A stretch of DNA of 44,344 bases, from assembly GCA_043807785.1 (NCBI GenBank), contig JAZDFO010000068.1, forward strand, positions 1 through 44,344, read 5' to 3'. Positions within the stretch are counted from its first letter, which is position 1. Each line of letters starts with the position of its first letter. The position numbers and the translations under genes are program-made. The notes beneath the pieces are model-generated. The model saw only the letters and a list, made by a program, of their open reading frames with translations, made no database searches and was not told where the DNA came from. Of the stretch, positions 9,821 through 44,344 are shown in pieces. This stretch comes from Candidatus Micrarchaeota archaeon. GTDB lineage: Archaea > Micrarchaeota > Micrarchaeia > Norongarragalinales > SBBD01.

Positions 9821-10414
9821 TTACGCCTTGGCCTCCTGCGCCTTTGCTGCAACAGGCTGTTGTGCCGCCTTCTCGGCAGGCTTTTCTACCGCCTTCTCTT
9901 GCGCCTTTTCGGCCGGCTTGTCCTCCTTCTTTTCTGCCGGCTTGTCCTTCTTGGGCTTGGCTGCCTTGTCTGCAGCAGCCTTGTCGGCCTTCTTCTTCTC
10001 CTTGGCTTCCTTGACGGTCGCCGGCCGGTCCTCGGTCTTGAACTCGTACTTTGCGGCCATCTTGGAAGCGATGTCCTTGATGGTCTGCTCGTTTGCGGCG
10101 TTGCCTGCCTTGGTCACGGCAATCGCGCTCGAGCCCACGTTGAGCCCTGCTGCCTTGCCCAGGCTGACCTTGCTGGAAACGTAAACATACGGGACCTTCT
10201 TTTCAGAGCACAGCTGGGGGAGGTGCATGACGATTTCGGGCGGGTCGACGTCTTCTGCGATGACCACCAGGGATGCTTCGCCGCGCTCGACTGCCTTGGT
10301 GCACTCGTTGGTGCCCTTGCGAACGCCGTTGGCGGCGCGCGCGGCCTCGATTGCCTCGAGGGCCTTCTTCTGCACGTCTGCAGGAGTCTCAAACTTGACG
10401 TGTATGGATGCCAT
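9821..10414 (-). CDS. rpl7ae: 50S ribosomal protein L7Ae with a ~75-aa Lys/Ala/Glu/Pro-rich C-terminal extension
   Basis: Core VRKGTNECTKAVERGEASLVVIAEDVDPPEIVMHLPQLCSEKKVPYVYVSSKVSLGKAAG. The tail contains KPAEK-type repeats. First gene of the conserved L7Ae-S28e-L24e order. Confidence 0.92.
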   Translation of the reverse strand: MASIHVKFETPADVQKKALEAIEAARAANGVRKGTNECTKAVERGEASLVVIAEDVDPPEIVMHLPQLCSEKKVPYVYVSSKVSLGKAAGLNVGSSAIAVTKAGNAANEQTIKDIASKMAAKYEFKTEDRPATVKEAKEKKKADKAAADKAAKPKKDKPAEKKEDKPAEKAQEKAVEKPAEKAAQQPVAAKAQEAKA

Positions 10415-10418
10415 GATA

Positions 10419-10443
10419 CAATCTCACCTTCGTTCATCGATTG
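10419..10443 (-). promoter_or_regulatory. Kink-turn (K-loop) in the rpl7ae 5' UTR enclosing the Shine-Dalgarno sequence
   Basis: Minus-strand RNA: CAAUC-GAU-GA-A-CGAAGG-U-GA-GAUUG. It has a 5-bp C-stem (CAAUC/GAUUG, with C-G at the -1 position), a 3-nt bulge (GAU), and tandem G.A/A.G pairs. The SD GAAGGUGA lies inside the element, and the AUG is 4 nt after it. Confidence 0.55.
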
Positions 10444-10539
10444 CGTGAACAAATAAGCGGAACATTCTTGTGCGAGCCAAGCTTTAAATACGTTTGGAGG
10501 GCAGTTCTTTAAATTGGCCCTTGACTTTGACGGAAATTT

Positions 10540-10806
10540 GTGGTTTTGATGGTTCTCTCGGATATCACGGAAATTCTTGGTATAGCGTCCCTTAACTTGA
10601 TTCCCAACCCCAAAAATCCACACCTCTGCAGATATTGCATTCCCGGCATACTCGCGGCTTTATTTGCCTTAATGTTTTTAGCTGGATTGTTTTCAAGCGG
10701 TCCCTCCAGTTTGACGGGAATATTCTTCATTCTCATGCTTGTGATGCTCGTGCTTACCGCTGCCGTTAGGAACAAGCACATAACGAAGCCGGTTAATCGC
10801 CGCTAG
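10540..10806 (+). CDS. Possible small two-TM membrane protein
   Basis: 88-aa ORF with two hydrophobic segments (GILAALFALMFLAGLF, GIFFILMLVMLVLTAAV). No homology recognised. Confidence 0.3.
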   Translation: MVLMVLSDITEILGIASLNLIPNPKNPHLCRYCIPGILAALFALMFLAGLFSSGPSSLTGIFFILMLVMLVLTAAVRNKHITKPVNRR

Positions 10807-10896
10807 GTTTTGGGCGCGTCCTTGAGCATCTCCTTGACCTGGTCGACGGTGACGAATTCCAGGGGGTTGATGCTGTTGAGCACGTAGCGCATCTCC
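10803..10896 (-). pseudogene. 3' remnant of a paralog of the coiled-coil gene at 12471..12845
   Basis: The minus strand encodes ...EMRYVLNSINPLEFVTVDQVKEMLKDAPKT*. The 45-nt stretch 10852..10896 is identical to 12523..12567. No matching upstream coding part is present. Confidence 0.5.
10836..10896. repeat. Dispersed repeat copy A (61 nt; 45-nt identical core)
   Basis: GACCTGGTCgACgGTgACGAATTCCAGGGGGTTGATGCTGTTGAGCACGTAGCGCATCTCC matches 12507..12567. Confidence 0.85.
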
Positions 10897-10909
10897 CGTA
10901 TCCGCTTCC

Positions 10910-11083
10910 CTAGTAAGTAATCACTTCCAGGCTGTCAACCCTTCGGAAGTGCTTCGCATTCGCCGTGATGACGGGCCGCTTTTCCGAGAGCGCGGTGCCG
11001 GCTATCATCGAATCTAGCGCATCGATTTCCGTCCCTCGGCTCCACCGCCTCAGTCGTCGTGCCCTTGTTGTAGCTACCGCCTT
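10910..11083 (-). pseudogene. C-terminal remnant of a PIN-domain (VapC-like) gene, no start codon
   Basis: The minus-strand frame reads ...GTEIDALDSMIAGTALSEKRPVITANAKHFRRVDSLEVITY*, a typical PIN C-terminal third. It begins directly after, and in frame with, the stop of the upstream gene, and has no Met. Confidence 0.5.
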
Positions 11084-11476
11084 TCACGCCAATTCTTTTA
11101 GGACGATGCGTTTTTCCTTTTCCTTGAAGGTGATTTCGTGCCGTTCAAAGAAACCGACGCGACCCAGGATGTTGAAGCTCGTCCCCATCCTGGCAAAACC
11201 GACCCGGGTGTTGAACAGGTTTCCGATTGCCTGCATCCGCAAGTCGAAGAGGAAAATCTCGGCCTTGTCGGATACCGTGGAGAGCGTCATGCGTTCTCCG
11301 CGCATCCACGGGATGCCGATAGCTTCCGCCACCCACGGCTGGAAAATGCTGTAATTGGAGCCCGAATCAACGATTCCGTCGCAGGCGATTTCGTTCGATA
11401 AATGGAAAAGCCTCACAGGTATGGTGGGGTAAAGCCCCTTCCCGTGGTGCCGGTAAGGAAACGATTGTTCGGCCAC
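11084..11476 (-). CDS. Retropepsin-like (clan AA) aspartic protease family protein
   Basis: 130 aa with the GIVDSGSNYSIF active-site-like D-S-G motif and ILGRVGFF near the C-terminus. Confidence 0.7.
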   Translation of the reverse strand: MAEQSFPYRHHGKGLYPTIPVRLFHLSNEIACDGIVDSGSNYSIFQPWVAEAIGIPWMRGERMTLSTVSDKAEIFLFDLRMQAIGNLFNTRVGFARMGTSFNILGRVGFFERHEITFKEKEKRIVLKELA

Positions 11477-11492
11477 GAAGTTCGCCTTGGGT

Positions 11493-11705
11493 TCACAGTA
11501 GGCTGTACGCTTCCTCCGGCAGAGGAATCTTCGTTATCAGTGGATTGCGCAGTCTGACTGCCTGGTTTTTCAGCAATTCTTTCGGGGAATCCGCCACCGC
11601 CAGCACTTTCCCTGCCGTTACGGCCACCCACTTGCCGGCAAGCCCGTCAAGCCGGTTCCCCTGGCGGGCAAGCCATGCGTGCGCGGCAACATGCGAAGCA
11701 GTCAT
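11493..11705 (-). CDS. Small DUF5678-like protein, upstream partner of the retropepsin-like gene
   Basis: 70 aa with GKWVAVTAGKVLAVADSPKELL, the pattern I associate with DUF5678. It ends 16 nt upstream of the protease gene. Confidence 0.5.
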   Translation of the reverse strand: MTASHVAAHAWLARQGNRLDGLAGKWVAVTAGKVLAVADSPKELLKNQAVRLRNPLITKIPLPEEAYSLL

Positions 11706-30064: not shown

Positions 30065-33658
<3,594 letters not shown>

Positions 33659-33693: not shown

Positions 33694-34524
33694 CTATATG
33701 GTATAGCGATTCCTTGGCGGGATTTTGGCCCCGCGCGCGGTCATCTCGTAGAGTACGCGCAGGCTTTCGTAGCTGCCTTTGCGGTTTTGCGGCTGCTGTG
33801 GCTTAACCATCCGGTATTCGAAGCCCGTGCCAAGCGCTTCCTTGAGCCTTTTTACCAAAAACGAGCCGGCGCCGAATTTTTCCGCAAGGTTTTCCCCGGC
33901 CTGCCTCCAGCGTTCCTCTTGGCTTTCGATGCCTTGCACGCCAGTAACCGAAACCACTTTCCTGCCGCCATCGACGTGGAAATTGAACGCAATCCTGCCG
34001 ATGGGAGCCTTTCCGCGATACAGCCGCAGCTGCCAGAGCGCTTCCGGGCAGGCAGGCCAGCCGATTTCGTCCTTGCCATGATCGTATCGGTTGGTGCGGA
34101 CAAGCTCAATCCGATATCCCTTGCCGGGTTGTGCCAGCGCGTCGAACTTTGGCGCCTCCTTGCTGCCCACGTCCAGGTTGACAACTGCGCGCGCTAGCTG
34201 GCGAAGCGCTTCGAGGGAACGGTACTCCCCGAACCCGTGCCTCACGCTGAAATACTTTGAAAGGTAGTGCGCGCGCAAAGCGCTCTCATAATGCCTGCCA
34301 TTGTGTTCTTCGCGCAATGGGCGCAGAATGCCTTCTTCGCGCAGGCGCAGGTGCTGGTACACCAGCCTCCAGCGCGGGTCGCTTTCATGCAGTATCGTGT
34401 GGAAAACGCGCAGGCTTTCCCCGTGCAGGTCAGGCAGTTTCGCACCCTTTGGCGGCTCGCGGTCGATGCCCTCGTGCGTGAGGATCCGGTCGAGCGGGTT
34501 GCGGAATCGGGTGTATCCTTTCAT
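33694..34524 (-). CDS. Hypothetical protein, no recognisable family
   Basis: 276-aa ORF with balanced composition, convergent with cdc48. Confidence 0.5.
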   Translation of the reverse strand: MKGYTRFRNPLDRILTHEGIDREPPKGAKLPDLHGESLRVFHTILHESDPRWRLVYQHLRLREEGILRPLREEHNGRHYESALRAHYLSKYFSVRHGFGEYRSLEALRQLARAVVNLDVGSKEAPKFDALAQPGKGYRIELVRTNRYDHGKDEIGWPACPEALWQLRLYRGKAPIGRIAFNFHVDGGRKVVSVTGVQGIESQEERWRQAGENLAEKFGAGSFLVKRLKEALGTGFEYRMVKPQQPQNRKGSYESLRVLYEMTARGAKIPPRNRYTI

Positions 34525-34534
34525 TCTCTTTTGC

Positions 34535-35125
34535 CTATTGTTTTACGAGTTCCTGCAGCCTTCGGGCGACTTTTTTCGACACTTTATCGTAGAGCGAGTT
34601 TCCTGACGCGTCCATCGTCACTATCAGCGGCCCGAGCTTGTCGGCCTGAAGCGTCCACATCGCCTCCGGCATGCCTAGGTCGAGCCATTTGACGCCCAAG
34701 ACCTTCAATTGCATTGCCGAAATTACTCCGCTGCCGCCGACTGCGGACAAGTAAACGCATTTTCCCTTCATCGCCTTCAGCACTTTGTCGTCCATCCCCC
34801 CCTTGCCGATGATTGCAGTAATCCCAAAGTCGTTTATCATCCGTGGCATCAGCGGGTTCAAGCGGCTTGAAGTAGTTGGGCCGGCGGAAACCAGCTCCCA
34901 TTTTCCATACCCGATCTTCCTCGCCAGCGGCCCGCAGTTGTAGACCGCCGCGCCCCGCAAGTCAGGCAAGTCCTTGCCGTGGCCGCCGTCGAGAATCCTC
35001 CTTATTGCCTGGTCGCGCATTGAGTAAATCGTTCCAGAGACCGTCGCAGCATCTCCGACTTTGAGCGCCAGCACGTCTGCCGTCTTGAGCGGAGTCTTGA
35101 GGTCAAAGGATTTCAATTTCGTCAC
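34535..35125 (-). CDS. Class I (Fe-S) fumarate hydratase / tartrate dehydratase, beta subunit
   Basis: 196 aa. GPTTSSRLNPLMPRMI, AIIGKGGM. Overlaps the alpha subunit gene by 23 nt. Confidence 0.85.
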   Translation of the reverse strand: MTKLKSFDLKTPLKTADVLALKVGDAATVSGTIYSMRDQAIRRILDGGHGKDLPDLRGAAVYNCGPLARKIGYGKWELVSAGPTTSSRLNPLMPRMINDFGITAIIGKGGMDDKVLKAMKGKCVYLSAVGGSGVISAMQLKVLGVKWLDLGMPEAMWTLQADKLGPLIVTMDASGNSLYDKVSKKVARRLQELVKQ

Positions 35126-35972
35126 CGCAGATTTTCACGGTTGCCTTGCGCTGCGCCCAGCATTGCATGTTGAGCGCCACCGGCAGGCTGGCGGTGTGAG
35201 TCGGCGCCATGTTAATCTTGACCGCCAGCGCGGTTGTATTGCCTCCCAAGCCCATCGTGCCGAGTTCGAGCGCGTTGATTGCCGCAAGTAGTTCAGCCTC
35301 CAGTTCGGCGAGCCGCTTGTCCTTGTTGTGCTCGTCGAGGGGCGAAAGGAACGCCTTTTTCGCCAGTTCCGCGGCCTGTTCGGAAGTGCCGCCGATGCCG
35401 ATTCCTATGGTGAGAGGCGGGCAGGCGTTCTTGCCCTTCTGTGCGACGGTCCGCAGGATGAATTTCTTGGCGCCGTCAATGCCGTCTGCGGGTGTAAGCA
35501 TGGCAAGCGCGCTCATGTTCTCGCACCCCGCGCCCTTTGGGATGACGGAAATTTCGACGCAGCCCTTGCCAACGTCAGCCACTTCATAGTTGATGATTGG
35601 CTCATTCCCTAAATTCTTTCGCGAAATCGGATCCACTGAATTCGGGCGCAGCGGCACGCTCTCGGTTGCCTTTCTCACGCCGTCGCGGACTCCATCGGCG
35701 ACTTCCTTGCCCAGCCGTTCCCCTCGCACGTAGAAAGTCAGGGTCCCGGTGTCCTGGCACATGGGCGCCTTCTTCTTGGCCGCCAAGCCGATGTTTTTGA
35801 GAATCAGCGCAAGCTGTGCTTTGGCGACCTTGTCGGTCTCGCCGTCGTGGGCTTTTTCCAGCGCGCGCACGGCGTCCTTGGGAAGCTCGCAGACGGCCTT
35901 GCCGAGCATTTCCTGCACTGCCTTGGCGACCGTCGCCGCGCTCGGGCCGCTTTCGCTGTTCCCGGCTTTCAT
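35103..35972 (-). CDS. Class I (Fe-S) fumarate hydratase / tartrate dehydratase, alpha subunit
   Basis: 289 aa. PMCQDTGTLTFYV, GIGIGGTSE. Confidence 0.85.
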   Translation of the reverse strand: MKAGNSESGPSAATVAKAVQEMLGKAVCELPKDAVRALEKAHDGETDKVAKAQLALILKNIGLAAKKKAPMCQDTGTLTFYVRGERLGKEVADGVRDGVRKATESVPLRPNSVDPISRKNLGNEPIINYEVADVGKGCVEISVIPKGAGCENMSALAMLTPADGIDGAKKFILRTVAQKGKNACPPLTIGIGIGGTSEQAAELAKKAFLSPLDEHNKDKRLAELEAELLAAINALELGTMGLGGNTTALAVKINMAPTHTASLPVALNMQCWAQRKATVKICGDEIEIL

Positions 35973-36084
35973 GCATTGGTTGCGGCGCTTTGGTTATTTA
36001 TTCGTATTCATTGAGGGCCAACTGTTTTGGCCACGGGAAAGCGGTTTAATTTCCTTCCCTGCATGGATATTCCCGGGAATCGTC

Positions 36085-36180
36085 ATGAAGCTGGAAGTCG
36101 TGGTGTTCGAGACGAGCATGGGAAACATCCATGTCGAGCTGCGCCGAAAGCGCGCACCGCTCACTGTAGAGAATTTCTTA
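36085..36180 (+). pseudogene. N-terminal 32-codon fragment of a cyclophilin-type peptidyl-prolyl isomerase
   Basis: MKLEVVVFETSMGNIHVELRRKRAPLTVENFL matches cyclophilin N-termini (aP.Tv.NF). Similarity is lost after 36180, and the frame runs into the 3' end of the convergent helicase gene. Confidence 0.6.
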
Positions 36181-36211
36181 GATGGGGCTCAAACTGGCAG
36201 GCAAAAACCCT

Positions 36212-37846
36212 TTACGCCTTTTGGCTCGATTTTTTGTCGGCTGACGTGATTTCGAGTATGCGGTCGAGCCGGAACACCCTCTCTGCCTGCCGCTTGAAGC
36301 AAAATGCCTTCATTCCAAGGTACTTCTTTCCCATGTACTCCATTTCGCCTACTTCCAGCGGCTGTACCGTGCGCTTGCTTTTCACGTCACTGGCCTTCAG
36401 ATAGACTATTTCCAGCGGCGTCTTGTTTTCAATCGCCTCTTCCACGAGCTCGGTTTTGCGTTTGAGCGGCGTCTGCTCTTCCGCCTTGCCGTATTGGTAG
36501 CTTGTAGTGAACTTGACGACCCTCCAGTCGGTGAAAACGTGTTTTTTCTCAACCGGTTTTTCGAGCGTTATGCCCTGCAGGGTGCGGCAGCGGCTCAAGG
36601 CGACGTAGAGCTGGCCGGGCGTGAACGTGCCTCTTCCGAGGTTGACGTGCACCCTATCGAAAGTCTTGCCCTGGCTCTTGTGGATAGTCACCGCCCACGC
36701 GAGTTTCATGGGGATTTGCGTAAACGAGCCGATGGTCCTGGAATCCAACGCCGCCCTTCCCTCGTTATAGAAATACTCGAACACGGTCCAAGTGTGTGGC
36801 GTCACTTCAACCCCGAAGCCATTCTGCAGCACGACGTTTACGCACTCCTTTTCCCCGCGTTGGCCAAAGCCAGTCACTTCCCCGACAGTGCCGTTCACCC
36901 ACCGTCCTGCGGCATCGTTGTTCAACATCATTATTTGCGCGCCTTTCTTCACGCGCAGCAGCTCGCCTGCAGGGCAGTGGCCTTCCTTGAATCCGCCTTT
37001 GATTACTGCCTTGAATTCGTGCGCCGGCGTCTTGAGGGAGGACAAGTGTTGTTCGTTGATGCCGTCCGCCAAGTCGTTGGTCGTAGTAAGCGTGACGCAG
37101 AAGCCGTCGTCCGCCTGCTTGGATTGCGGCAGGCAGCGTCGGTTGAGCGCGCGCAGCTCGTTTTCGCCGACGGTGTTGTTCCGGATGGCGTTTAGTAAGC
37201 TTATGAACGAGTCGTCTTTCTGCCGGTAGATTTTCTCGAGCTCGACGTACCCGAAGTTTGCCGGCGAGAAGGCCTTCGAGTCGAAAAAGTATGGGCTTCC
37301 GTAGTGCTCGCGGAACAAGTCTCTTTCCTTGCCGGTCACGACGGGCGGGAGTTGGTACAAGTCGCCGAAGAAAATCATTTGGACGCCTCCGAACGGCTCG
37401 TTTTTCTTCCCTCGGTTGAGTCGCAGGGACTTGTCCATGCAGTCGAGCAGGTCGGCGCGCACCATGGAAGCCTCGTCGATTACGAGCGCGTCGAGTTCTG
37501 CGTAGAGCGTTATGCGCTCTCCCCACGCCTTCTTGATTTTGTTGGGCGTAATGTCTGGCTTGAAGCCGAAGAAGGAGTGGATGGTTTGCCCGCCGACGTT
37601 GACTGCCGCCACCCCTGTAGGCGCCAGCACGGCAACTTGTTTGCCGGTTTTGGTTGTGAAGTAGCTGAGCAACGTGGACTTTCCGGTTCCTGCCTTGCCG
37701 GTCACCAGCACGTTATCGCCAGTCCCTTCCATGAGCTGCATGGCCTTGGAAAACTCGTCGTTGAAGTCTATTTCCTCGGGTTTCAAGCCCGCTGCCGTAT
37801 TCCCCCACGGTTGCTGCGCATCCGGCGCGCTTTCCTTTGAACTCAA
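36212..37846 (-). CDS. Pif1/RecD-family (SF1B) helicase with a C-terminal WYL-like domain
   Basis: 544 aa. VTGKAGTGKSTLL, LVIDEASMV, FFGDLYQLPPV, TIHKSQG. C-terminal KRTVQPLEVGEMEYMGKKYLGMKAFCFKRQAERVFRLDRILEI. The start is uncertain: TTG at 37846, and the first ATG lies after conserved N-terminal sequence. Confidence 0.85.
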   Translation of the reverse strand: MSSKESAPDAQQPWGNTAAGLKPEEIDFNDEFSKAMQLMEGTGDNVLVTGKAGTGKSTLLSYFTTKTGKQVAVLAPTGVAAVNVGGQTIHSFFGFKPDITPNKIKKAWGERITLYAELDALVIDEASMVRADLLDCMDKSLRLNRGKKNEPFGGVQMIFFGDLYQLPPVVTGKERDLFREHYGSPYFFDSKAFSPANFGYVELEKIYRQKDDSFISLLNAIRNNTVGENELRALNRRCLPQSKQADDGFCVTLTTTNDLADGINEQHLSSLKTPAHEFKAVIKGGFKEGHCPAGELLRVKKGAQIMMLNNDAAGRWVNGTVGEVTGFGQRGEKECVNVVLQNGFGVEVTPHTWTVFEYFYNEGRAALDSRTIGSFTQIPMKLAWAVTIHKSQGKTFDRVHVNLGRGTFTPGQLYVALSRCRTLQGITLEKPVEKKHVFTDWRVVKFTTSYQYGKAEEQTPLKRKTELVEEAIENKTPLEIVYLKASDVKSKRTVQPLEVGEMEYMGKKYLGMKAFCFKRQAERVFRLDRILEITSADKKSSQKA

Positions 37847-37883
37847 TCTGGTTTCGCCCGCCTTTTACAATCCGTTTTCCGAT

Positions 37884-39287
37884 TTATTCCCATAGCAGCT
37901 TGGTTTGTCCTCCTGCCCTGCCCCTCGTCTGGCTGACGTGCAAAAGCAGGGGAAAGTTGTTCGTGCATTTTCCTATTGCGATGCATTGCCCGACGCCGAG
38001 GTTCTTGACGATGCCAAGGCTAGCGGGGTCGATGACTTGCGCGCTGGACACGAAGGCGATGTCGTTGTCGGAGGAGAAGTTGAATGTGAACAAGTTGTCG
38101 CACTGGCGGAAGACCATGGAAGGCAGCGTCGTTGGCTCGTTGGTGATGATGACGGAGTAGATGCCGAGGTGGCGCATGCGCGTTATCACGTCGTCCCAGA
38201 ATTCCTTCTCGAAGTAGTTCTGCGCCTCTTCCGCGAAGAGAAAGATCTTGCCTTCGTCCCGCAAGCCGGCGCTGATAAGCTGCCGCAGGATGTAGACGAT
38301 TGAAAGCTCCTTGACCTTCTCGCCTTGGCGGAACATGTTCAACACTACCGCGCCGCCAAAACGCGCTTTTTCCAACGCCTGCCTGAAGTTGAATTCCCCA
38401 AAGACGCCGAGGCTCGCCGCGTAGTCAATGCGCGCCAGCGCCGCGTTCATCGAGCCGGGAGTGCTTTTGCTCAATTCCACCCATTGCTTTAAGTCTTTGA
38501 GGCTCTTGCCGGCAGCGTTTTCCGCCCAGTAGCGTGCGAAGAGGCGGAAGGCGTTGTGGTTTTCCTCGATTTGGCACATGCGCGCGAACGTCTCGAAGCT
38601 GATGCCGTCGAGGGGAATGAAGAAGTTCCTGCCGGGAACGAGTTCGACGATTCCGCCTGCAAGCCCGCTCTCCCCGCCGTTTTGCAGGTTCTTCAGCGAC
38701 GCGTATTCTCCGTTGACGTCCAAGACGACCGCCGGCGCGTTGTTGGCTAAGAGCTCTTCCAGCAGTTTCTTTGCCAAATGCGATTTTCCGCTCCCCTTCC
38801 TTCCGGTAATAAGCGTGACTCCCTGCAGGCTGGCCAAATCGATGGCGAAATCCAGGCCCGAGCCCTGCATCTTGCCTATATTCGCCGGCTTTTTCGGTTC
38901 GAAGCCCAGCAGGGATACGATTTCCTGCTCGCTGAGCCTTTTGACGGCCGCGTTGTCAGCGGGAAGCTTCAGTAACCCGGGCGAGAACCTGCCTTCCTTG
39001 ACCGTTCCGCGTATCTTGCATTTGGCGAGGCGGAAGGAAGACAATTGCCTGCCGTATTTGTCGTTGATTTCGCGCGCAAGCTCCGCGTTTGGGCCTTCGA
39101 GGCTGTCGAGCAAGTCGGTGAACACTTTGCGCAGGCCGCCGTACTGCAAGTCGTACGCCTGTGCGACCACCTGCATTTCGCCGTCGGAAACCAGCACGCA
39201 GTCGCCGATTTTGAGCTTGTCGCCCTCGCCGAAGGCCACGCCCAGCTCGTCGCCGTGCTTATGCAATACTTTCAGCCCCCCGGCCAT
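37884..39287 (-). CDS. HerA/FtsK-like (DUF87-type) P-loop ATPase
   Basis: Walker A TGRKGSGKSH and Walker B-like KIFLFAEEAQNYF. N-terminal barrel-like GDCVLVSDGEMQVVAQAYDL. The ATG at 39287 is preceded by GGGGGA. The alternative ATG at 39362 abuts the upstream stop (TAGATG). Confidence 0.8.
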   Translation of the reverse strand: MAGGLKVLHKHGDELGVAFGEGDKLKIGDCVLVSDGEMQVVAQAYDLQYGGLRKVFTDLLDSLEGPNAELAREINDKYGRQLSSFRLAKCKIRGTVKEGRFSPGLLKLPADNAAVKRLSEQEIVSLLGFEPKKPANIGKMQGSGLDFAIDLASLQGVTLITGRKGSGKSHLAKKLLEELLANNAPAVVLDVNGEYASLKNLQNGGESGLAGGIVELVPGRNFFIPLDGISFETFARMCQIEENHNAFRLFARYWAENAAGKSLKDLKQWVELSKSTPGSMNAALARIDYAASLGVFGEFNFRQALEKARFGGAVVLNMFRQGEKVKELSIVYILRQLISAGLRDEGKIFLFAEEAQNYFEKEFWDDVITRMRHLGIYSVIITNEPTTLPSMVFRQCDNLFTFNFSSDNDIAFVSSAQVIDPASLGIVKNLGVGQCIAIGKCTNNFPLLLHVSQTRGRAGGQTKLLWE

Positions 39288-39362
39288 CGCTTTTCCCCCG
39301 GCGGGTATTGGGCTTGGGAAGGAAGAAAAACCTGCCGGCACCGCGTTTCCCCTAGGCGGCAT

Positions 39363-39668
39363 CTAAAGCATATCGAGTTTTTTCTTAAGCGCCTTGGCCG
39401 TTTCGTAAATCCGCAGTTCTCTGGCCTTCGGACTCACTCCGTACCGTTTGGTTGGAGCTCCTGTCGGAGATTTCCCCGGCACTTCAGCAACGATTCTCTT
39501 TGCCTTCATTTCTTTAAGGACCTTGGAAAGCCCCGGCTCCGTCAGTCCAGTGGCGACCACGAGCTCTGACCAGCTTCTGGGCTCCTTGTGGGTGGCTTGC
39601 AGCACCTTGTAGGTCGAATCCCGCATCAGCAACGCCACCGCTCCCCATTCAGCAGGCTTGTATCGCAT
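39363..39668 (-). CDS. Small winged-helix (ArsR/MarR-like) DNA-binding protein
   Basis: 101 aa. RSWSELVVATGLTEPGLSKVLKEMKAKRIVAE. First gene of the cassette. Confidence 0.65.
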   Translation of the reverse strand: MRYKPAEWGAVALLMRDSTYKVLQATHKEPRSWSELVVATGLTEPGLSKVLKEMKAKRIVAEVPGKSPTGAPTKRYGVSPKARELRIYETAKALKKKLDML

Positions 39669-39681
39669 GACATTGAAAACA

Positions 39682-39723
39682 ACTTAACTCGATTTAAGCC
39701 GATTACTTGTCTATCAGTTAAGT
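39682..39723. promoter_or_regulatory. 8-bp inverted repeat (ACTTAACT / AGTTAAGT, 26-nt spacer) next to a bidirectional TATA box
   Basis: Repeat arms at 39682..39689 and 39716..39723. TATATAAAAA at 39724..39733. It lies between the divergent genes at 39668 (minus strand) and 39775 (plus strand). Confidence 0.35.
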
Positions 39724-39774
39724 ATATAAAAACAGTCGTAGCAGTTATACTCAGCCAATTTGGGCGGTGAGAGT

Positions 39775-40050
39775 ATGGTTGAGGACAAAAAGGACACAAT
39801 TCAGGAATTGAAGCGAAGAGAATATACCGTTACGAGTACGCCCGACAAGGGGTTGCTTGTTGAAAAAGACACTTTTTGGGGCAACTTCTCATACGATACG
39901 GGAATAGGCAAAGATACCTCTCATATCAAATGGGGCCGCACAATCCTCTTGATGATTATTTACGGAATCGGGATAATTGGCGGCCTATATTGGCTGTACC
40001 GAAAAGGCCAATTTCGTCAAGAGGTCATTAGCATCGTAGGAGGAAAATAG
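39775..40050 (+). CDS. Small protein with a C-terminal TM helix
   Basis: Track ORF 39760..40050 (TTG start); ATG at 39775. TM segment TILLMIIYGIGIIGGLYWLY. Lower-GC region. Confidence 0.4.
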   Translation: MVEDKKDTIQELKRREYTVTSTPDKGLLVEKDTFWGNFSYDTGIGKDTSHIKWGRTILLMIIYGIGIIGGLYWLYRKGQFRQEVISIVGGK

Positions 40051-40608
40051 GTGAGATATGTGATAAAACCAATAATTTTGTTGATTGCCGTAGCCATTTT
40101 GCTTTCTGGCTGCACAAGCAGTGAAGTCAAAAAAGTTGATGCTGCCGCCTCACAAACCGCGGCGACTTCCACGCCAGACGTAAAAACGTTCAAGGTTGCC
40201 GGGGTCGGAGAGACGCTGACCAATGACGAACTTAAGATCACACTCAATTCTGCTGAATTCATGGAGGCCATACCCAGCCAAAACGAGTACTTGACTGCCA
40301 TTGCAAAGGCGGACTATACCTTTGCCGTCGTTGAGGTGACTATAGAAAACGTTTACTCCAAACCATCGGCGGTTAGCAGCCTCATCCAGTTCAAGGTCGT
40401 GGACTCAGATGGCTACAAATATGACATGTCATTCGCAGGCTACACTGCCTTGGACCTGCACCTGGATGGAACACTTCAACCGGGGGATAAAGTAAGAGGA
40501 AAACTCGCCTTCGAAGTGCCAAAAAGCTCAAAAGACCTGCAAATGGTTTTTAATTTTGGCTTAACCGACACTGCGCAGGCTAAATTCACTTTGGGGACAC
40601 CGAAGTAA
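40051..40608 (+). CDS. Lipobox protein with a DUF4352-like beta-sandwich domain
   Basis: GTG start with GGAGGA 6 nt upstream. MRYVIKPIILLIAVAILLSGC lipobox. FAVVEVTIENVYSKPSAVSSLIQFKVVDSDGYKY resembles DUF4352. Confidence 0.65.
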   Translation: MRYVIKPIILLIAVAILLSGCTSSEVKKVDAAASQTAATSTPDVKTFKVAGVGETLTNDELKITLNSAEFMEAIPSQNEYLTAIAKADYTFAVVEVTIENVYSKPSAVSSLIQFKVVDSDGYKYDMSFAGYTALDLHLDGTLQPGDKVRGKLAFEVPKSSKDLQMVFNFGLTDTAQAKFTLGTPK

Positions 40609-40721
40609 ATTGGGCTAACGGGTAATTTGCCTGAAAGCGTGCTTGGCCGGAGGATTGGCTGTTGGCATTGCCTTGGCGCTCTTCCTTTCCTATATAGCAA
40701 TTCCGCCTTGTGCCCGCGTTT

Positions 40722-41282
40722 TCAGGATGCTTGATTGGCGGCGGGGAAATACCCTCGCGCTTTCATGATGTTGTCCAGCCCTGGGTAAGTCATCAGGTTC
40801 AATGCGATGCCGATGGAGCGCTGTTTTCCGCCCGCGTTCATGTTAAACGTGTCCTGCAGCTGGAAATAGGCGTCGACGTAAGCGTCTTGGGCTTGTTTTC
40901 CTTGCAAAAACTTAAGTCCCCCCAACGCGTTTGCAGCCGCCAGTCGAACCCGCGCCTCGTCATCCTCAATTGCTGTAAGCAAAACGCCTGCAAGCTCCGC
41001 GATTTTCTTATCTAAAACACAGCTGAAGCGAAGCGCGCCCAGCCCGCGCAGGCCGCCGTACCGTTCCTGCCATTTTCTGCTGCCGTACATGCGCATGCAC
41101 CCGTCCCTAACCATTTCGAGCGCCCGTGTGGCCTGCCTGCCCCTTAGTTCTCCAAACCTTTCTTCTAAATGGCGCTTGCACAACGCGTCGATTTCCTTTA
41201 CCACCTGCTTGATTTCCGGGGTTGAGCCGCTTCCAAGCCGCACGACGATGCCTTTGACTGTTTCCGTCCAGCCCTTTTTCAT
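40722..41282 (-). CDS. HEAT-repeat-like protein
   Basis: Track ORF runs to 41321. The ATG at 41282 overlaps the upstream stop (ATGA). EDDEARVRLAAANALGGL is HEAT-like. Confidence 0.6.
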   Translation of the reverse strand: MKKGWTETVKGIVVRLGSGSTPEIKQVVKEIDALCKRHLEERFGELRGRQATRALEMVRDGCMRMYGSRKWQERYGGLRGLGALRFSCVLDKKIAELAGVLLTAIEDDEARVRLAAANALGGLKFLQGKQAQDAYVDAYFQLQDTFNMNAGGKQRSIGIALNLMTYPGLDNIMKARGYFPAANQAS

Positions 41283-42115
41283 ACCGTCGGACCTCCAGGA
41301 ATCCCGGCGTCTTTCCCGCATTGTTTGAGGCCTTCGTCAGCACCGTTTTGTTCGCCCATAGCATTACCTGCCAAATCTTGCGCCAGGGGTGCGATAACCA
41401 GGTTTGCCCCGTTTTTGTTCAGCCACCGCCGCCTATCTCGGTAGTCGGGAACTGCTTTTTCGACCAGCGACCAGAACGCCGGCGAATGGCCTTTTTCCTT
41501 CAAGTGCGCCAGCTCGTGCATGATGACGTAGTCCAAGTGCTCCGGGGGAGCCAGCAGGAGCCTGAAGCTAAGGTTGATGTTGCCGTCCTGCGAGCAGCTG
41601 CCCCAGTTCGACAGGTTGTCCTTGATGAACACTTTGCGCGGCGCGAACCCGAAGTGCTTGTCATTCAGCTCCCTCACGCGCTTGTCGACCTGTGGCAGAA
41701 GGACGCTTGAAATCACGCGCCTGGCGAGGTTGGAAACGTGCTTTTGGCGGACGGATTCGCCGATTCCCTGCGCGAGCACGACCTCCACCACGCCGCCACT
41801 GAACCCCGCGGAAGACGACTTTTCCCCCCTGCCATCCCTTACGCTAACCCGGAATTCCCGGCCCCAAACCCTTGCAACCTGCCCGTCGAAAAAATCCAGC
41901 CCCCTGCGCTCAAACCTATCGGGCGCATTTCGCAGGCCGGCAACAATTTTTTCCTCAAGTTCCGCCGCAGCCCTGAACTGCTCTTCCCTCGGCCACGACA
42001 CCGGAACCTTGATGAAAATCGTGCCGCAGCGGACGCTAGCACGAGCGCGCCTTGCATGCGTGCCCACTCGCCTGACCGCATACTGTTTTCCGTTGACTTC
42101 GATGGTCTTCTCCAT
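41279..42115 (-). CDS. DUF45/YgjP-like (WLM/SprT-like) zinc metallohydrolase
   Basis: Track ORF runs to 42253; the ATG at 42115 gives MEKTIEVNGKQYAV. LDYVIMHELAHLKEKGHSPAFWSLVEKAVPDYRDRRRWL contains HExxH. Confidence 0.8.
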   Translation of the reverse strand: MEKTIEVNGKQYAVRRVGTHARRARASVRCGTIFIKVPVSWPREEQFRAAAELEEKIVAGLRNAPDRFERRGLDFFDGQVARVWGREFRVSVRDGRGEKSSSAGFSGGVVEVVLAQGIGESVRQKHVSNLARRVISSVLLPQVDKRVRELNDKHFGFAPRKVFIKDNLSNWGSCSQDGNINLSFRLLLAPPEHLDYVIMHELAHLKEKGHSPAFWSLVEKAVPDYRDRRRWLNKNGANLVIAPLAQDLAGNAMGEQNGADEGLKQCGKDAGIPGGPTV

Positions 42116-42276
42116 TTCCCGTTCCTCTTCGTGGCGAGACTCAATTCGTGCCTCCAATTTAAAAACCGTATCTGCGAGTAATAAAAGGCAGCCGGCATAA
42201 CCCGTATCGGGAAAAACCGGAGTTCTACAAAAATTGGTCCGGAAATGGCCCATATAGCATTAATGCCGCATCAGCC

Positions 42277-42549
42277 TTGAAGGGGCCATGCCTGGAGCCG
42301 GGGCAATACCAGTCCGGGCATTCGGATGCGCTGCTGGAACTTTTCAAGCAATACCTCGTGACGGACGAGAGATATGTCGCGCGGCTCAAGAGGCATTACG
42401 AAATGTTCAAGGCAAAGGTTCGGGAAATTGCGGGAAAGCAACGACTCTCAGAGAGCGCAGGCCGTGAGAGCGTGCCGAAAGCCGGCAGGAACGATTCATG
42501 CCCGTGCGGCTCCGGGAAGAAATACAAGAAATGCTGCCTGAAGCAGTGA
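42277..42549 (+). CDS. Small SEC-C motif protein
   Basis: The C-terminus [18 protein letters not shown] is the SEC-C metal-binding motif. Start uncertain (TTG at 42277). Confidence 0.6.
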
Positions 42550-42558
42550 GGCGTTCGC

Positions 42559-42918
42559 ATGGCGGGAAGCGCATTTCTCGGTTGGGAGGAAATAACGAAG
42601 TTGCGCAGCCGGAAAAGGAGAACGGCGGAGATAATGGTGGACTGCAACGGAGAAGACGAGTGCGATGCCACCATGGAATCCTACGCCGTGGATTGCCTGC
42701 AGTGCCCGTTCGAGGCGAGGATGCGCGGATCGGGCAAAGGCGAGAAGTTTCGGGTGCTTGGAGTGGTTTGCGGGGAGGGCGGGCAAATCCGTTGCAAAGC
42801 GGACGTGCGCGGCGCAATTGTGCGCATTGCGCTCCTGGACATAGAGCCGCTCTCAAGCGCCGGCACGACGAACCGCAGGGTTATCGAGGATTACCAAGAG
42901 TATGCGCGCGGTTGGTGA
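42559..42918 (+). CDS. Hypothetical small protein adjacent to the SEC-C gene
   Basis: 119-aa ORF. The pattern VDCNGEDE...CPFEA...V.V....... .IALLDIE...........IEDYQEY..W recalls a small conserved family I cannot name with confidence. A T7 run follows at 42962..42968. Confidence 0.4.
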   Translation: MAGSAFLGWEEITKLRSRKRRTAEIMVDCNGEDECDATMESYAVDCLQCPFEARMRGSGKGEKFRVLGVVCGEGGQIRCKADVRGAIVRIALLDIEPLSSAGTTNRRVIEDYQEYARGW

Positions 42919-43115
42919 AGAAGGCTGCGAAATCGCTGGCGAGGGAGTTGGGGCGCCGTGATTTTTTTGTAATTGTTTAGGAACCGAGGGCGTTGCTACT
43001 TCTACTAATCACGCCCTGGGCACAAGCCTAGCCGTTGGCTAGACGCCTCAATATCGGTTGCATCAGAATGCCGAATTTGACGCCACCTATAAATTACCCT
43101 TTGAAAAAGAGCGCG

Positions 43116-43739
43116 TCAATCATTTTTATCGTAAATCCTTTGCGAAAATTTATTTGCATTTTCAAGAAATATGCTGCTGATACTCAGAACATATTGTTTT
43201 TTCATAAAATTATATCTGCGGGAAAAATAATATGAATCCGGGCCGAGGGAAAGGGGGTATTGAAATTCTTCCCCCAGTTTTTTCTCGTTACTAGTTAATG
43301 CTTTCTTACTTTCAGCGAGGTAAGCCGCTGCAGAAGCTTCTGAATTGAAGGAAGTCATGAAAATCGAGTAACTGTCCTTGCCATCCTTGCAAATGACTGC
43401 CTTGCTATCCACACAGCCGGGAATCTTCTCAATCTTGTATTCGCGGGCAGTATCTGGAAGGGTTGCGCAGAATTGCCGAAAGTCGGATGGAATGAAATCT
43501 GGAATACTTTCATCGCCTATCTTGGACAATGCCGCAGATGTAGGCATGCCACTCCATTTGACCATCTGTTCGATGTATCCTGCAGGCAACTTATCGGTTG
43601 ACGGAACGGGGTTTGAAATAGTCGTCGGAAATGGAGAAAGAATCGGAGTAGCCGTAGGTTGGACTTGATTTTGGCTAGGAGTGCTAAGACATCCTACGAA
43701 GATAATGAGTAAAGTAACCAGTCCAATTGATTTAATCAT
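43116..43739 (-). CDS. Lipobox protein, unknown function (low-GC region)
   Basis: Track ORF runs to 43820. The ATG at 43739 gives MIKSIGLVTLLIIFVGC, followed by a Pro/Thr/Ser-rich linker. Confidence 0.5.
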   Translation of the reverse strand: MIKSIGLVTLLIIFVGCLSTPSQNQVQPTATPILSPFPTTISNPVPSTDKLPAGYIEQMVKWSGMPTSAALSKIGDESIPDFIPSDFRQFCATLPDTAREYKIEKIPGCVDSKAVICKDGKDSYSIFMTSFNSEASAAAYLAESKKALTSNEKKLGEEFQYPLSLGPDSYYFSRRYNFMKKQYVLSISSIFLENANKFSQRIYDKND

Positions 43740-44083
43740 ATTTATCGGAAAAACTATTCTTAACGTCAATAAAAAGGCCTTACTTCGCTGGAATAGATTC
43801 AATTTCCAGATTTTTGGCACCGCAGTGGCAAATTTGGCACGAATTCTAATGAGGCCCTGGCTGCAATACTATTAGCTGTCGCTGGAAAGGCGGCAAGGTG
43901 CATAATCGTGTAAACGATGGCCCGCGTTGGTTTTACTGGCTTTAGCATTTTTGGCCTTTGCCTATGTTCGCCTCGTTTTTTGACGAGCGGGAAGTGCAAG
44001 CTATAAATAGCGGTTTGGCAAGACCAGCCACGCCAAAGGTGGTCAAAGGAATAACGCGAAAAACGAGTAAAAATTAGTCAAAG

Positions 44084-44161
44084 GACTGCCAACAATGTGG
44101 TGTCCTAGGGCGGGAGTTCGACTCCCTGTCCGGGCGTCATGCCTACCGCTAGTAGGCAGTC
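44084..44161 (+). other. Structured non-coding element with a tRNA T-arm-like hairpin (not a callable tRNA)
   Basis: Outer 7-bp pairing GACTGCC/GGCAGTC. Inner GGGAG-TTCGA-CTCCC at 44112..44126 and TGCCTAC-CGCTA-GTAGGCA at 44140..44158. TATA-like CTATAAATAG at 44001..44010. Confidence 0.2.
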
Positions 44162-44344
44162 CGGCAATTAAGTTTAAAAACTATCGTGCGCTTCAGGTTA
44201 TGTGCCTCGCCCCCCAATTGCAATAGTCTTGTCGCGAAAGGAGCGCAAGCTCTTGCAAGAAAACACTCGACCGAGTTCCCAGTACCGCTTTGTGCAACGT
44301 GCAAGAGTCATCCTGCAAGCAGCTCGAGGCCTTTCAAACAACGA

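Follow-up and report, generated by a model that had tools for sequence, protein, structure and literature searches.

The closest described counterparts of the locus are of three kinds. Cyclophilins of the PF00160 family, among them the short bacterial and archaeal PpiA/PpiB type, have a complete domain of about 140-170 residues that forms an eight-stranded barrel. Islander-type tDNA islands (PMC4383910) and islands at the 5' end of dusA (PMC4482086) use a mechanism that is reported to leave 5' stubs. Pif1 helicases with a C-terminal WYL domain have been described from bacteria and include TePif1, DdPif1 (8BNV) and SsPif1 (8BNS) (bioRxiv 10.1101/163188, PMC9964779).

The DNA analysed here, referred to as the window, is the whole of one contig (C68, 44,344 nucleotides) of a Micrarchaeota (DPANN) MAG (G000) that comprises 147 contigs and is 68.8% complete. 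It carries at 36085-36249 on the forward strand an ORF that shares the N-terminal strands and the AP.(T/S)V.NF motif of the PF00160 cyclophilins, but corresponds to about a quarter of their ~160-residue domain and is a gene fragment without the function of the family. As in the tDNA and dusA islands, a truncated gene end stands at the edge of strain-specific DNA; a tRNA lies beside the locus in a sister genome, and the region is a mosaic of GC blocks. In contrast to those islands, no integrase, att duplication or regenerated target gene was found here, and the stub itself appears to be non-native. The adjoining helicase gene differs from the bacterial Pif1-WYL helicases in that it occurs in a DPANN archaeon, has an HerA-like ATPase gene as neighbour and ends in an 11-residue non-conserved tail overlapping the stub. 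Taken together, replacement or deletion through illegitimate recombination accounts for the pattern better than integration at a specific site would.

Identification of the cyclophilin stub

The ORF opens with ATG at 36085 and closes with TGA at 36247-36249, giving 54 codons with the translation MKLEVVVFETSMGNIHVELRRKRAPLTVENFL DGAQTGRQKPFTPFGSIFCRLT (full reading MKLEVVVFETSMGNIHVELRRKRAPLTVENFLDGAQTGRQKPFTPFGSIFCRLT), and it begins with a real cyclophilin N-terminus. Residues 6-52 match Pfam PF00160 with an E-value of 1.4e-6 and 29.1 bits (cut-off 21.7 bits) over profile positions 2-44 of 159, and residues 2-38 align to positions 2-38 of a custom cyclophilin HMM with 43 bits; this HMM rests on 11 cyclophilins, of which six come from relatives and five are metagenomic matches. 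The first-pass annotation had called the ORF a cyclophilin N-terminus, which these matches confirm; a lack of any significant cyclophilin match for the 32-residue peptide, which it had named as speaking against the call, was not observed. The best solved-structure matches are bacterial PpiA/PpiB-type cyclophilins, aligned over residues 6-39; the best of them, the E. coli periplasmic cyclophilin (1j2a/1clh), aligns through PpiA residues 7-40. Some archaeal and metagenomic cyclophilins are 52-64% identical to the stub.

Codons 1-38 (36085-36198, forward strand) carry beta-1/beta-2 and the AP.TVENF motif up to 'TG', as assigned by Pfam, the custom HMM and the alignments. All pairwise and profile alignments end at residue 38-41, and the homology is secure through codon 38 (nt 36198). 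The first-pass annotation had the gene cut off after 32 codons and saw no cyclophilin motif after 36180. The cut falls instead at codon 38-54, and 'DGAQTG' is still cyclophilin sequence (compare NFIDLAQTGFY in the metagenomic match P0006); the statement about motifs fails for this stretch and stands for the catalytic segments FHR..GFM.QGGD and MAN.G.N.NGSQFF, which are absent. With 54 codons the ORF falls short of a complete cyclophilin domain. It lacks the active-site segments FHR(V/I)..GFM.QGGD and MAN.G.N.NGSQFF and the C-terminal His/Trp region, and has at most a degenerate 'FCR'. Because all catalytic and substrate-binding residues are absent, the stub is predicted to be a non-functional 5' cyclophilin remnant that is unable to act as a PPIase.

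The 112-nt divergent intergenic region between the fumarase alpha subunit gene (fumA) and the stub (35973-36084) has a GC content of 0.48, against 0.57 for the genome; it is without counterpart in relatives, no similarity being found to the genomes G001 or G003. It contains A/T-rich TATA-like boxes at ~35990, on the fumA side, and at 36046-36055 (GGTTTAATTT), ~30 nt before the stub ATG, which are putative promoters of fumA and the stub, respectively. The start codon of the stub is still in place, and its promoter probably is as well. An imperfect palindrome, CATGGATATTCCCGGGAATCGTCATG, at 36059-36090 with the centre CCCGGG spans the start codon and may be an operator or a product of chance.

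Search for the remainder of the gene

No other cyclophilin-like segment was detected in six frames of the window with the custom HMM (hmmsearch --max, E<=10), and a PF00160 search of all 147 contigs matched only the stub, so that the assembly holds neither the remainder of the gene nor an intact paralog. The earlier remark that the missing two-thirds lay in no ORF therefore holds for every frame of the window and every contig. In this 69%-complete genome, unassembled DNA could still hold an intact cyclophilin, whether the native gene or another. No direct repeat of the stub region was found in the window, and the block borders share only chance-level matches of 14-25 nt.

Beyond the assembly, a word-indexed search with a 166-residue upstream-extended frame, for which full-length proteins were eligible, returned no close intact homologue. 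In a phmmer search against 1.84 billion cluster representatives the best full-length match to the stub was 61% identical; the only stub-length protein at full length was the stub itself, the short matches being contig-end fragments of other cyclophilins with at most 78% identity. The 68 genomes of the order yielded full-length cyclophilins only and no stub-like short protein. A short functional protein conserved in relatives, which the first-pass annotation had named as the finding that would speak against a truncated gene, was thus found neither among the 1.84 billion representatives nor in the 68 genomes. Exact-protein look-ups for the stub, the helicase and fumA gave no record, and neither these nor the word-indexed search revealed a close strain with an intact gene or the state before the event.

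The helicase/HerA-like block and the junction

Three genes on the reverse strand follow the stub. The block is headed by a 101-residue winged-helix (MarR-like) protein (39363-39668; Pfam), followed by a 492-residue HerA/DUF87-type ATPase (37884-39362; Pfam and PADLOC) and a 544-residue Pif1-family SF1B helicase with a C-terminal WYL domain (36212-37846; Pfam and PDB 8bns). Helicase residues 25-534 align with SsPif1 (8bns) at an E-value of 1e-183, and DdPif1 (8bnv) is matched as well; PADLOC and PHROGs gave only generic helicase and HerA matches. As a Pif1 with a WYL domain the protein is typical of the bacterial type. Relatives of the helicase were found at 295 or more metagenomic loci, the best 80 of which are 52-57% identical. 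At residue 533 (nt 36248) the conserved helicase sequence ends with ...FRLDRILEI. Nothing corresponding to the last 11 residues, TSADKKSSQKA (36215-36247), is present in the best 80 of at least 295 homologues, most of these 80 ending 0-6 residues after DRILEI; the SsPif1 chain in 8bns ends three residues past the aligned region.

G001 lacks the helicase, which only a few genomes of the order possess. An HerA-like ATPase gene adjoins or lies near a helicase homologue in G021 and G038, two other genomes of the order, in differing arrangements, and an HerA-like or cyclophilin neighbour occurs at none of the best 80 of the at least 295 metagenomic helicase loci. We also considered that the stub arrived together with the helicase from a donor carrying a cyclophilin gene beside Pif1-WYL, and rejected this for lack of any cyclophilin at those best 80 loci. 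In G021 (L064 = G021:C15 9578-10074) a 148-residue N-terminal helicase fragment, 68% identical, is joined to a SEC-C-motif stretch, of which 59 nt are 83% identical to window 42484-42542; the HerA-like gene that follows (10284-11698) is 62-76% identical to that of the window. The helicase homologue of G025 (L063 = G025:C5 9447-10751) has an in-frame TAA and is without the WYL part. Helicase and HerA accessory genes decay and recombine across the order.

Codons 39-54 of the stub with the TGA (36199-36249, forward strand) form the breakpoint zone, which overlaps the helicase tail and contains a possible degenerate FHR block, assessed with a position matrix and tblastn. The sequence GSIFCRL (codons 47-53, 36223-36243) resembles the invariant G-x-x-F-H-R-V block, but it lies five residues too far downstream; tblastn aligns the stub tail to the cyclophilin of G021 with a 5-residue gap. 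With the position matrix, ~0.6% of random 16-residue stop-free windows from the six-frame translation of this genome score as well (p~0.006), which is suggestive of cyclophilin homology extending to the stop at 36247. A eukaryotic CypA-like long loop was examined as a source of the five extra residues before 'FCR' and rejected, the best PDB matches being short-loop PpiA/PpiB proteins and the alignments stopping at 38-41.

Since the cyclophilin homology ends at 36198 and the conserved helicase end is at 36248, the junction should lie somewhere in 36199-36247. The stop codon of the stub (36247) abuts the conserved helicase end on the opposite strand (36248), and the two ORFs overlap by 38 nt, in agreement with the first-pass annotation, which had the cyclophilin frame collide with the 3' end of the convergent helicase gene. 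If the junction is at ~36247, the cyclophilin would have been cut at about codon 54, and the last 11 helicase codons would be the antisense of the former cyclophilin gene.

Synteny of the fumarase locus

The sister genome G001, of the same genus and 97% complete, has a contig (C31) that is collinear with window 28.2-35.9 kb through Cdc48, fumarase beta and fumarase alpha. The left conserved flank of the variable DNA is fumA (35103-35972, reverse strand), encoding a class I fumarate hydratase alpha subunit with 75% amino acid identity to its counterpart on this contig. The blastn collinearity in fumA covers 35103-35909, and in an alignment of the 5' end the similarity begins only at about codon 12 (about nt 35935). 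In G001 a gene for a 408-residue lipoprotein stands 11 nt upstream of fumA, with a MazF-like gene, a 178-aa gene, a wHTH gene and a small membrane protein gene beyond it. G001 and G003 have this lipoprotein gene as the immediate upstream neighbour of fumA, and in G002 two genes intervene and the distance is ~2 kb; the present assembly has no homologue of it. No other cyclophilin was found at 43 Micrarchaeota fumA loci searched in six frames with the custom HMM (--max). Because relatives carry the lipoprotein there and no other Micrarchaeota fumA locus has a cyclophilin, the fumarase-cyclophilin adjacency is derived and unique to this genome.

Both flanks of the variable DNA lie on the one G001 contig, 3.1 kb apart and with entirely different genes between them; in the window the distance is ~8.1 kb. 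Since similarity to G001 stops at about codon 12 of fumA and resumes only at 44027-44160, the interval of ~35.94-44.03 kb (35935-44026) is a replaced variable region, with the stub and the 112-nt upstream stretch inside it. Synteny and GC content describe it as a mosaic of at least four compositional blocks, with GC values of 0.57 at 36.2-39.67 kb (0.569, the genome mean, for the three-gene block), 0.46 at 39.67-40.72 kb, 0.575 at 40.72-42.96 kb and 0.43 at 42.96-44.03 kb. The first-pass annotation had regarded the stub as a breakpoint, and the truncated cyclophilin 5' end abutting the helicase gene agrees with this; of the two extents that it offered, a 36.2-39.7 kb cassette and a larger island extending rightwards, the second is the better, the whole of 35.94-44.03 kb being non-homologous to G001. 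The synteny comparison that it recommended for the space between fumarase and cyclophilin showed the lipoprotein gene there and no cyclophilin; with a native cyclophilin elsewhere in relatives, this contradicts a resident gene beside fumarase that was interrupted by the cassette.

Small orphan genes come and go throughout the fumarase neighbourhood. A 276-aa orphan ORF between cdc48 and fumB (33694-34524) is without counterpart in G001, and G001 has an unrelated 182-aa ORF between fumB and fumA (L060 6316-6864), where the two fumarase genes of the window overlap. The Cdc48 D1-domain intein (30755-32206) is absent from the G001 Cdc48, in which the flanks join directly at L060 4284-4285; these flanks are 76% and 83% DNA-identical to G001, and intein presence thus varies within the genus.

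No tyrosine recombinase was found in the window, and a PF00589 search of the genome gave a single match, on contig C28. Pfam and PHROGs revealed no recombinase in the ten ORFs of 36.2-43.8 kb; the genome-wide search covered the tyrosine type.

The right flank and the contig end

The right conserved flank is a 130-nt non-coding element (44027-44160, forward strand) with 74% identity to G001 C31 10835-10957. Its G001 counterpart lies immediately beside the 3' end of a tRNA that contains an intron. It is conserved only within the genus, and its weak matches in other genomes are not tRNAs. Classification of 44027-44160 as a tRNA, a split tRNA or a known RNA was tried with ARAGORN and Rfam, and neither gave a match; the element may be either a small RNA or an old relic of an att site or tRNA. 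Upstream of it is a TATA-like box, CTATAAATAG (44003-44012), and two GTCAAAGGA repeats lie inside. The element (L060 = G001:C31 10835-10970 in the sister genome) ends in a hairpin and ...GGGCGTCA, resembling the T-arm/acceptor 3' half of a tRNA, with similarity as well, in inverted orientation, to the 3' end of the adjacent tRNA.

Similarity to G001 ends at ~44149-44160, where the last 138+ nt of the window become identical to the start of contig C140, window 44149-44286 corresponding to C140 positions 1-138. Contig C140 is rich in HEPN/nucleotidyltransferase toxin-antitoxin pairs. The orthologue of the G001 tRNA lies at C123:35-169 (in C123 1-169), and GCCTACNNCTAG is found at C68:44141 and again directly ahead of the tRNA 3' end in C123; the duplicated sequence may have served as the target for a further insertion, one placed between the 130-nt element and the tRNA.

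Origin of the stub

The native cyclophilin gene of G001 is found in the order Lon, tRNA-Val(CAC), cyclophilin, phosphoglycerate mutase (gpm) and a TtcA-like gene (ttcA). The present assembly does not have this locus in one piece: 105 nt past tRNA-Val, contig C142 runs out in unrelated sequence, and contig C93 begins in the TtcA-like gene. The tRNA-Val(CAC) has a 59-nt intron here (C142 4389-4520) and none in G001 (L051 = G001:C18 10450-10523), and the assembly diverges from G001 right after this tRNA, which makes the place a second variable spot beside a tRNA.

Across 33 aligned residues the stub has 42% identity with the native cyclophilin of G001 and 39% with that of G003, these two native proteins being 70% identical; between this genome and G001, by comparison, the identity is 75% for fumA and 83% for Lon. 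Cyclophilins of another family of the order are 52-55% identical to the stub, and some metagenomic proteins 58-64%. Such values, read from the alignments, indicate that the stub is not orthologous to the lineage's own cyclophilin. Because of the 39-42% versus 70% identity and the different locus of the native gene, the stub is probably what is left of foreign, earlier imported cargo that was later cut by deletion or replacement, although 33-38 residues are too few for a phylogeny. Cyclophilins occur in six of the 40 relatives searched (seven of 41 when the stub of this genome is counted), and because of this patchy distribution their loss is evidently tolerated in the order.

Discussion

We consider it probable that 36085-36249 is a 5' cyclophilin remnant in a fast-turnover accessory region between the fumarase operon and the tRNA-linked conserved element. 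It is proposed that the place was once occupied by a cyclophilin gene of foreign, non-orthologous origin, which had its own promoter and lay there as cargo, divergent from fumA, and that a later deletion or illegitimate recombination removed everything after codon 38-54. The truncating event would probably have been tied to the arrival or rearrangement of the Pif1-WYL helicase/HerA-like block, and the cut cyclophilin end would have been joined to the 3' end of the helicase gene; we infer this order of events, the mechanism and the role of the helicase block in the truncation from the arrangement of the locus. A recent truncation is suggested by the intact start and by 38 well-conserved codons that show no damage. 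Small DPANN genomes are expected to purge such remnants quickly through deletional bias. A more elaborate version, which we regard as unlikely, would make the fumA-to-tRNA interval an integrase-free exchange hotspot whose gene blocks are swapped whole through short-homology or illegitimate recombination, with the stub as a datable scar, the last 11 helicase codons derived from antisense cyclophilin sequence and the stub promoter driving convergent transcription that enters the helicase gene at its 3' end.

The assembly is the source for the join at 36.2 kb, and a chimeric join there of cyclophilin- and helicase-bearing molecules from different strains or organisms has to be weighed. Such an artefact would not be out of place in a MAG of 147 contigs, in which many contig ends overlap others by ~140 nt, indicating strain branches, and in which the right end of the window itself (44149-44286) is identical to the C140 start. 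We nevertheless hold it to be quite unlikely, since a single G001 contig carries both fumA and the 44.03-44.16 kb element, the rest of the bin offers no repeat (20 nt or longer) of the junction sequence through which a misjoin could have come about, the GC content of the helicase block (0.569) equals the genome mean, and helicase and HerA homologues are present in other genomes of the same order. It is very unlikely that the stub is the attL end of an element integrated site-specifically in the 5' end of a cyclophilin gene, with a restored cyclophilin at its other end. The mechanism is reported (PMC4482086, PMC4383910) to produce 5' stubs of just this kind, the region is beside a tRNA-proximal hotspot, and the contig ends in a repeat or branch, so that more island DNA would lie beyond. 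Yet the window has no integrase, the single tyrosine recombinase of the assembly being on another contig; 36.2-44.3 kb contains no second cyclophilin segment or att-like repeat of the stub; from 44027 on the DNA is again of host type and syntenic with G001, with no cyclophilin; and the fumA-cyclophilin adjacency is not ancestral, no relative having an intact target gene at the locus.

That the 54-codon ORF or its transcript has been kept as useful, either as a micro-protein or as a convergent antisense transcript modulating the 3' end of the helicase mRNA, seems highly improbable to us. The intact start codon and TATA-like box, the 38 well-conserved codons free of frameshift and the 38-nt overlap with the helicase 3' end would all suit such a role, but no protein of like length and sequence exists among the 1.84 billion representatives or the 68 order genomes, and 38 intact codons are equally expected from a recent truncation. 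The simplest scenario, insertion of the 3.5-kb wHTH/HerA/helicase cassette into an intact cyclophilin gene, accounts for the stub abutting the last gene of the cassette and for the drop in GC at the other end, 39.67 kb. It is nonetheless extremely improbable, as no cyclophilin 3' part lies right of 39.7 kb in any frame, no target-site or terminal repeat is present and in other genomes the three genes do not stay together as a unit; because neither a 3' gene part nor a repeat is found beyond the cassette, the insertion breakpoint of a 36.2-39.7 kb cassette put forward in the first-pass annotation is excluded.

On the reading that we prefer, a remnant of imported cargo lying just inside the border of a replaced accessory region, the cyclophilin stub would be an ordinary genomic scar and not a working gene. 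The ORF is better annotated as a cyclophilin pseudogene or fragment than as a small protein, and the MAG should not be credited with a PPIase from it. The stub helps to delimit an 8-kb replaced accessory region in a DPANN genome by a tRNA-proximal hotspot, and gene turnover at this fumA-tRNA region appears to proceed without a recognisable integrase. This replaced-region context also bears on how the helicase/HerA-like block, the more interesting object of the two, is to be read.
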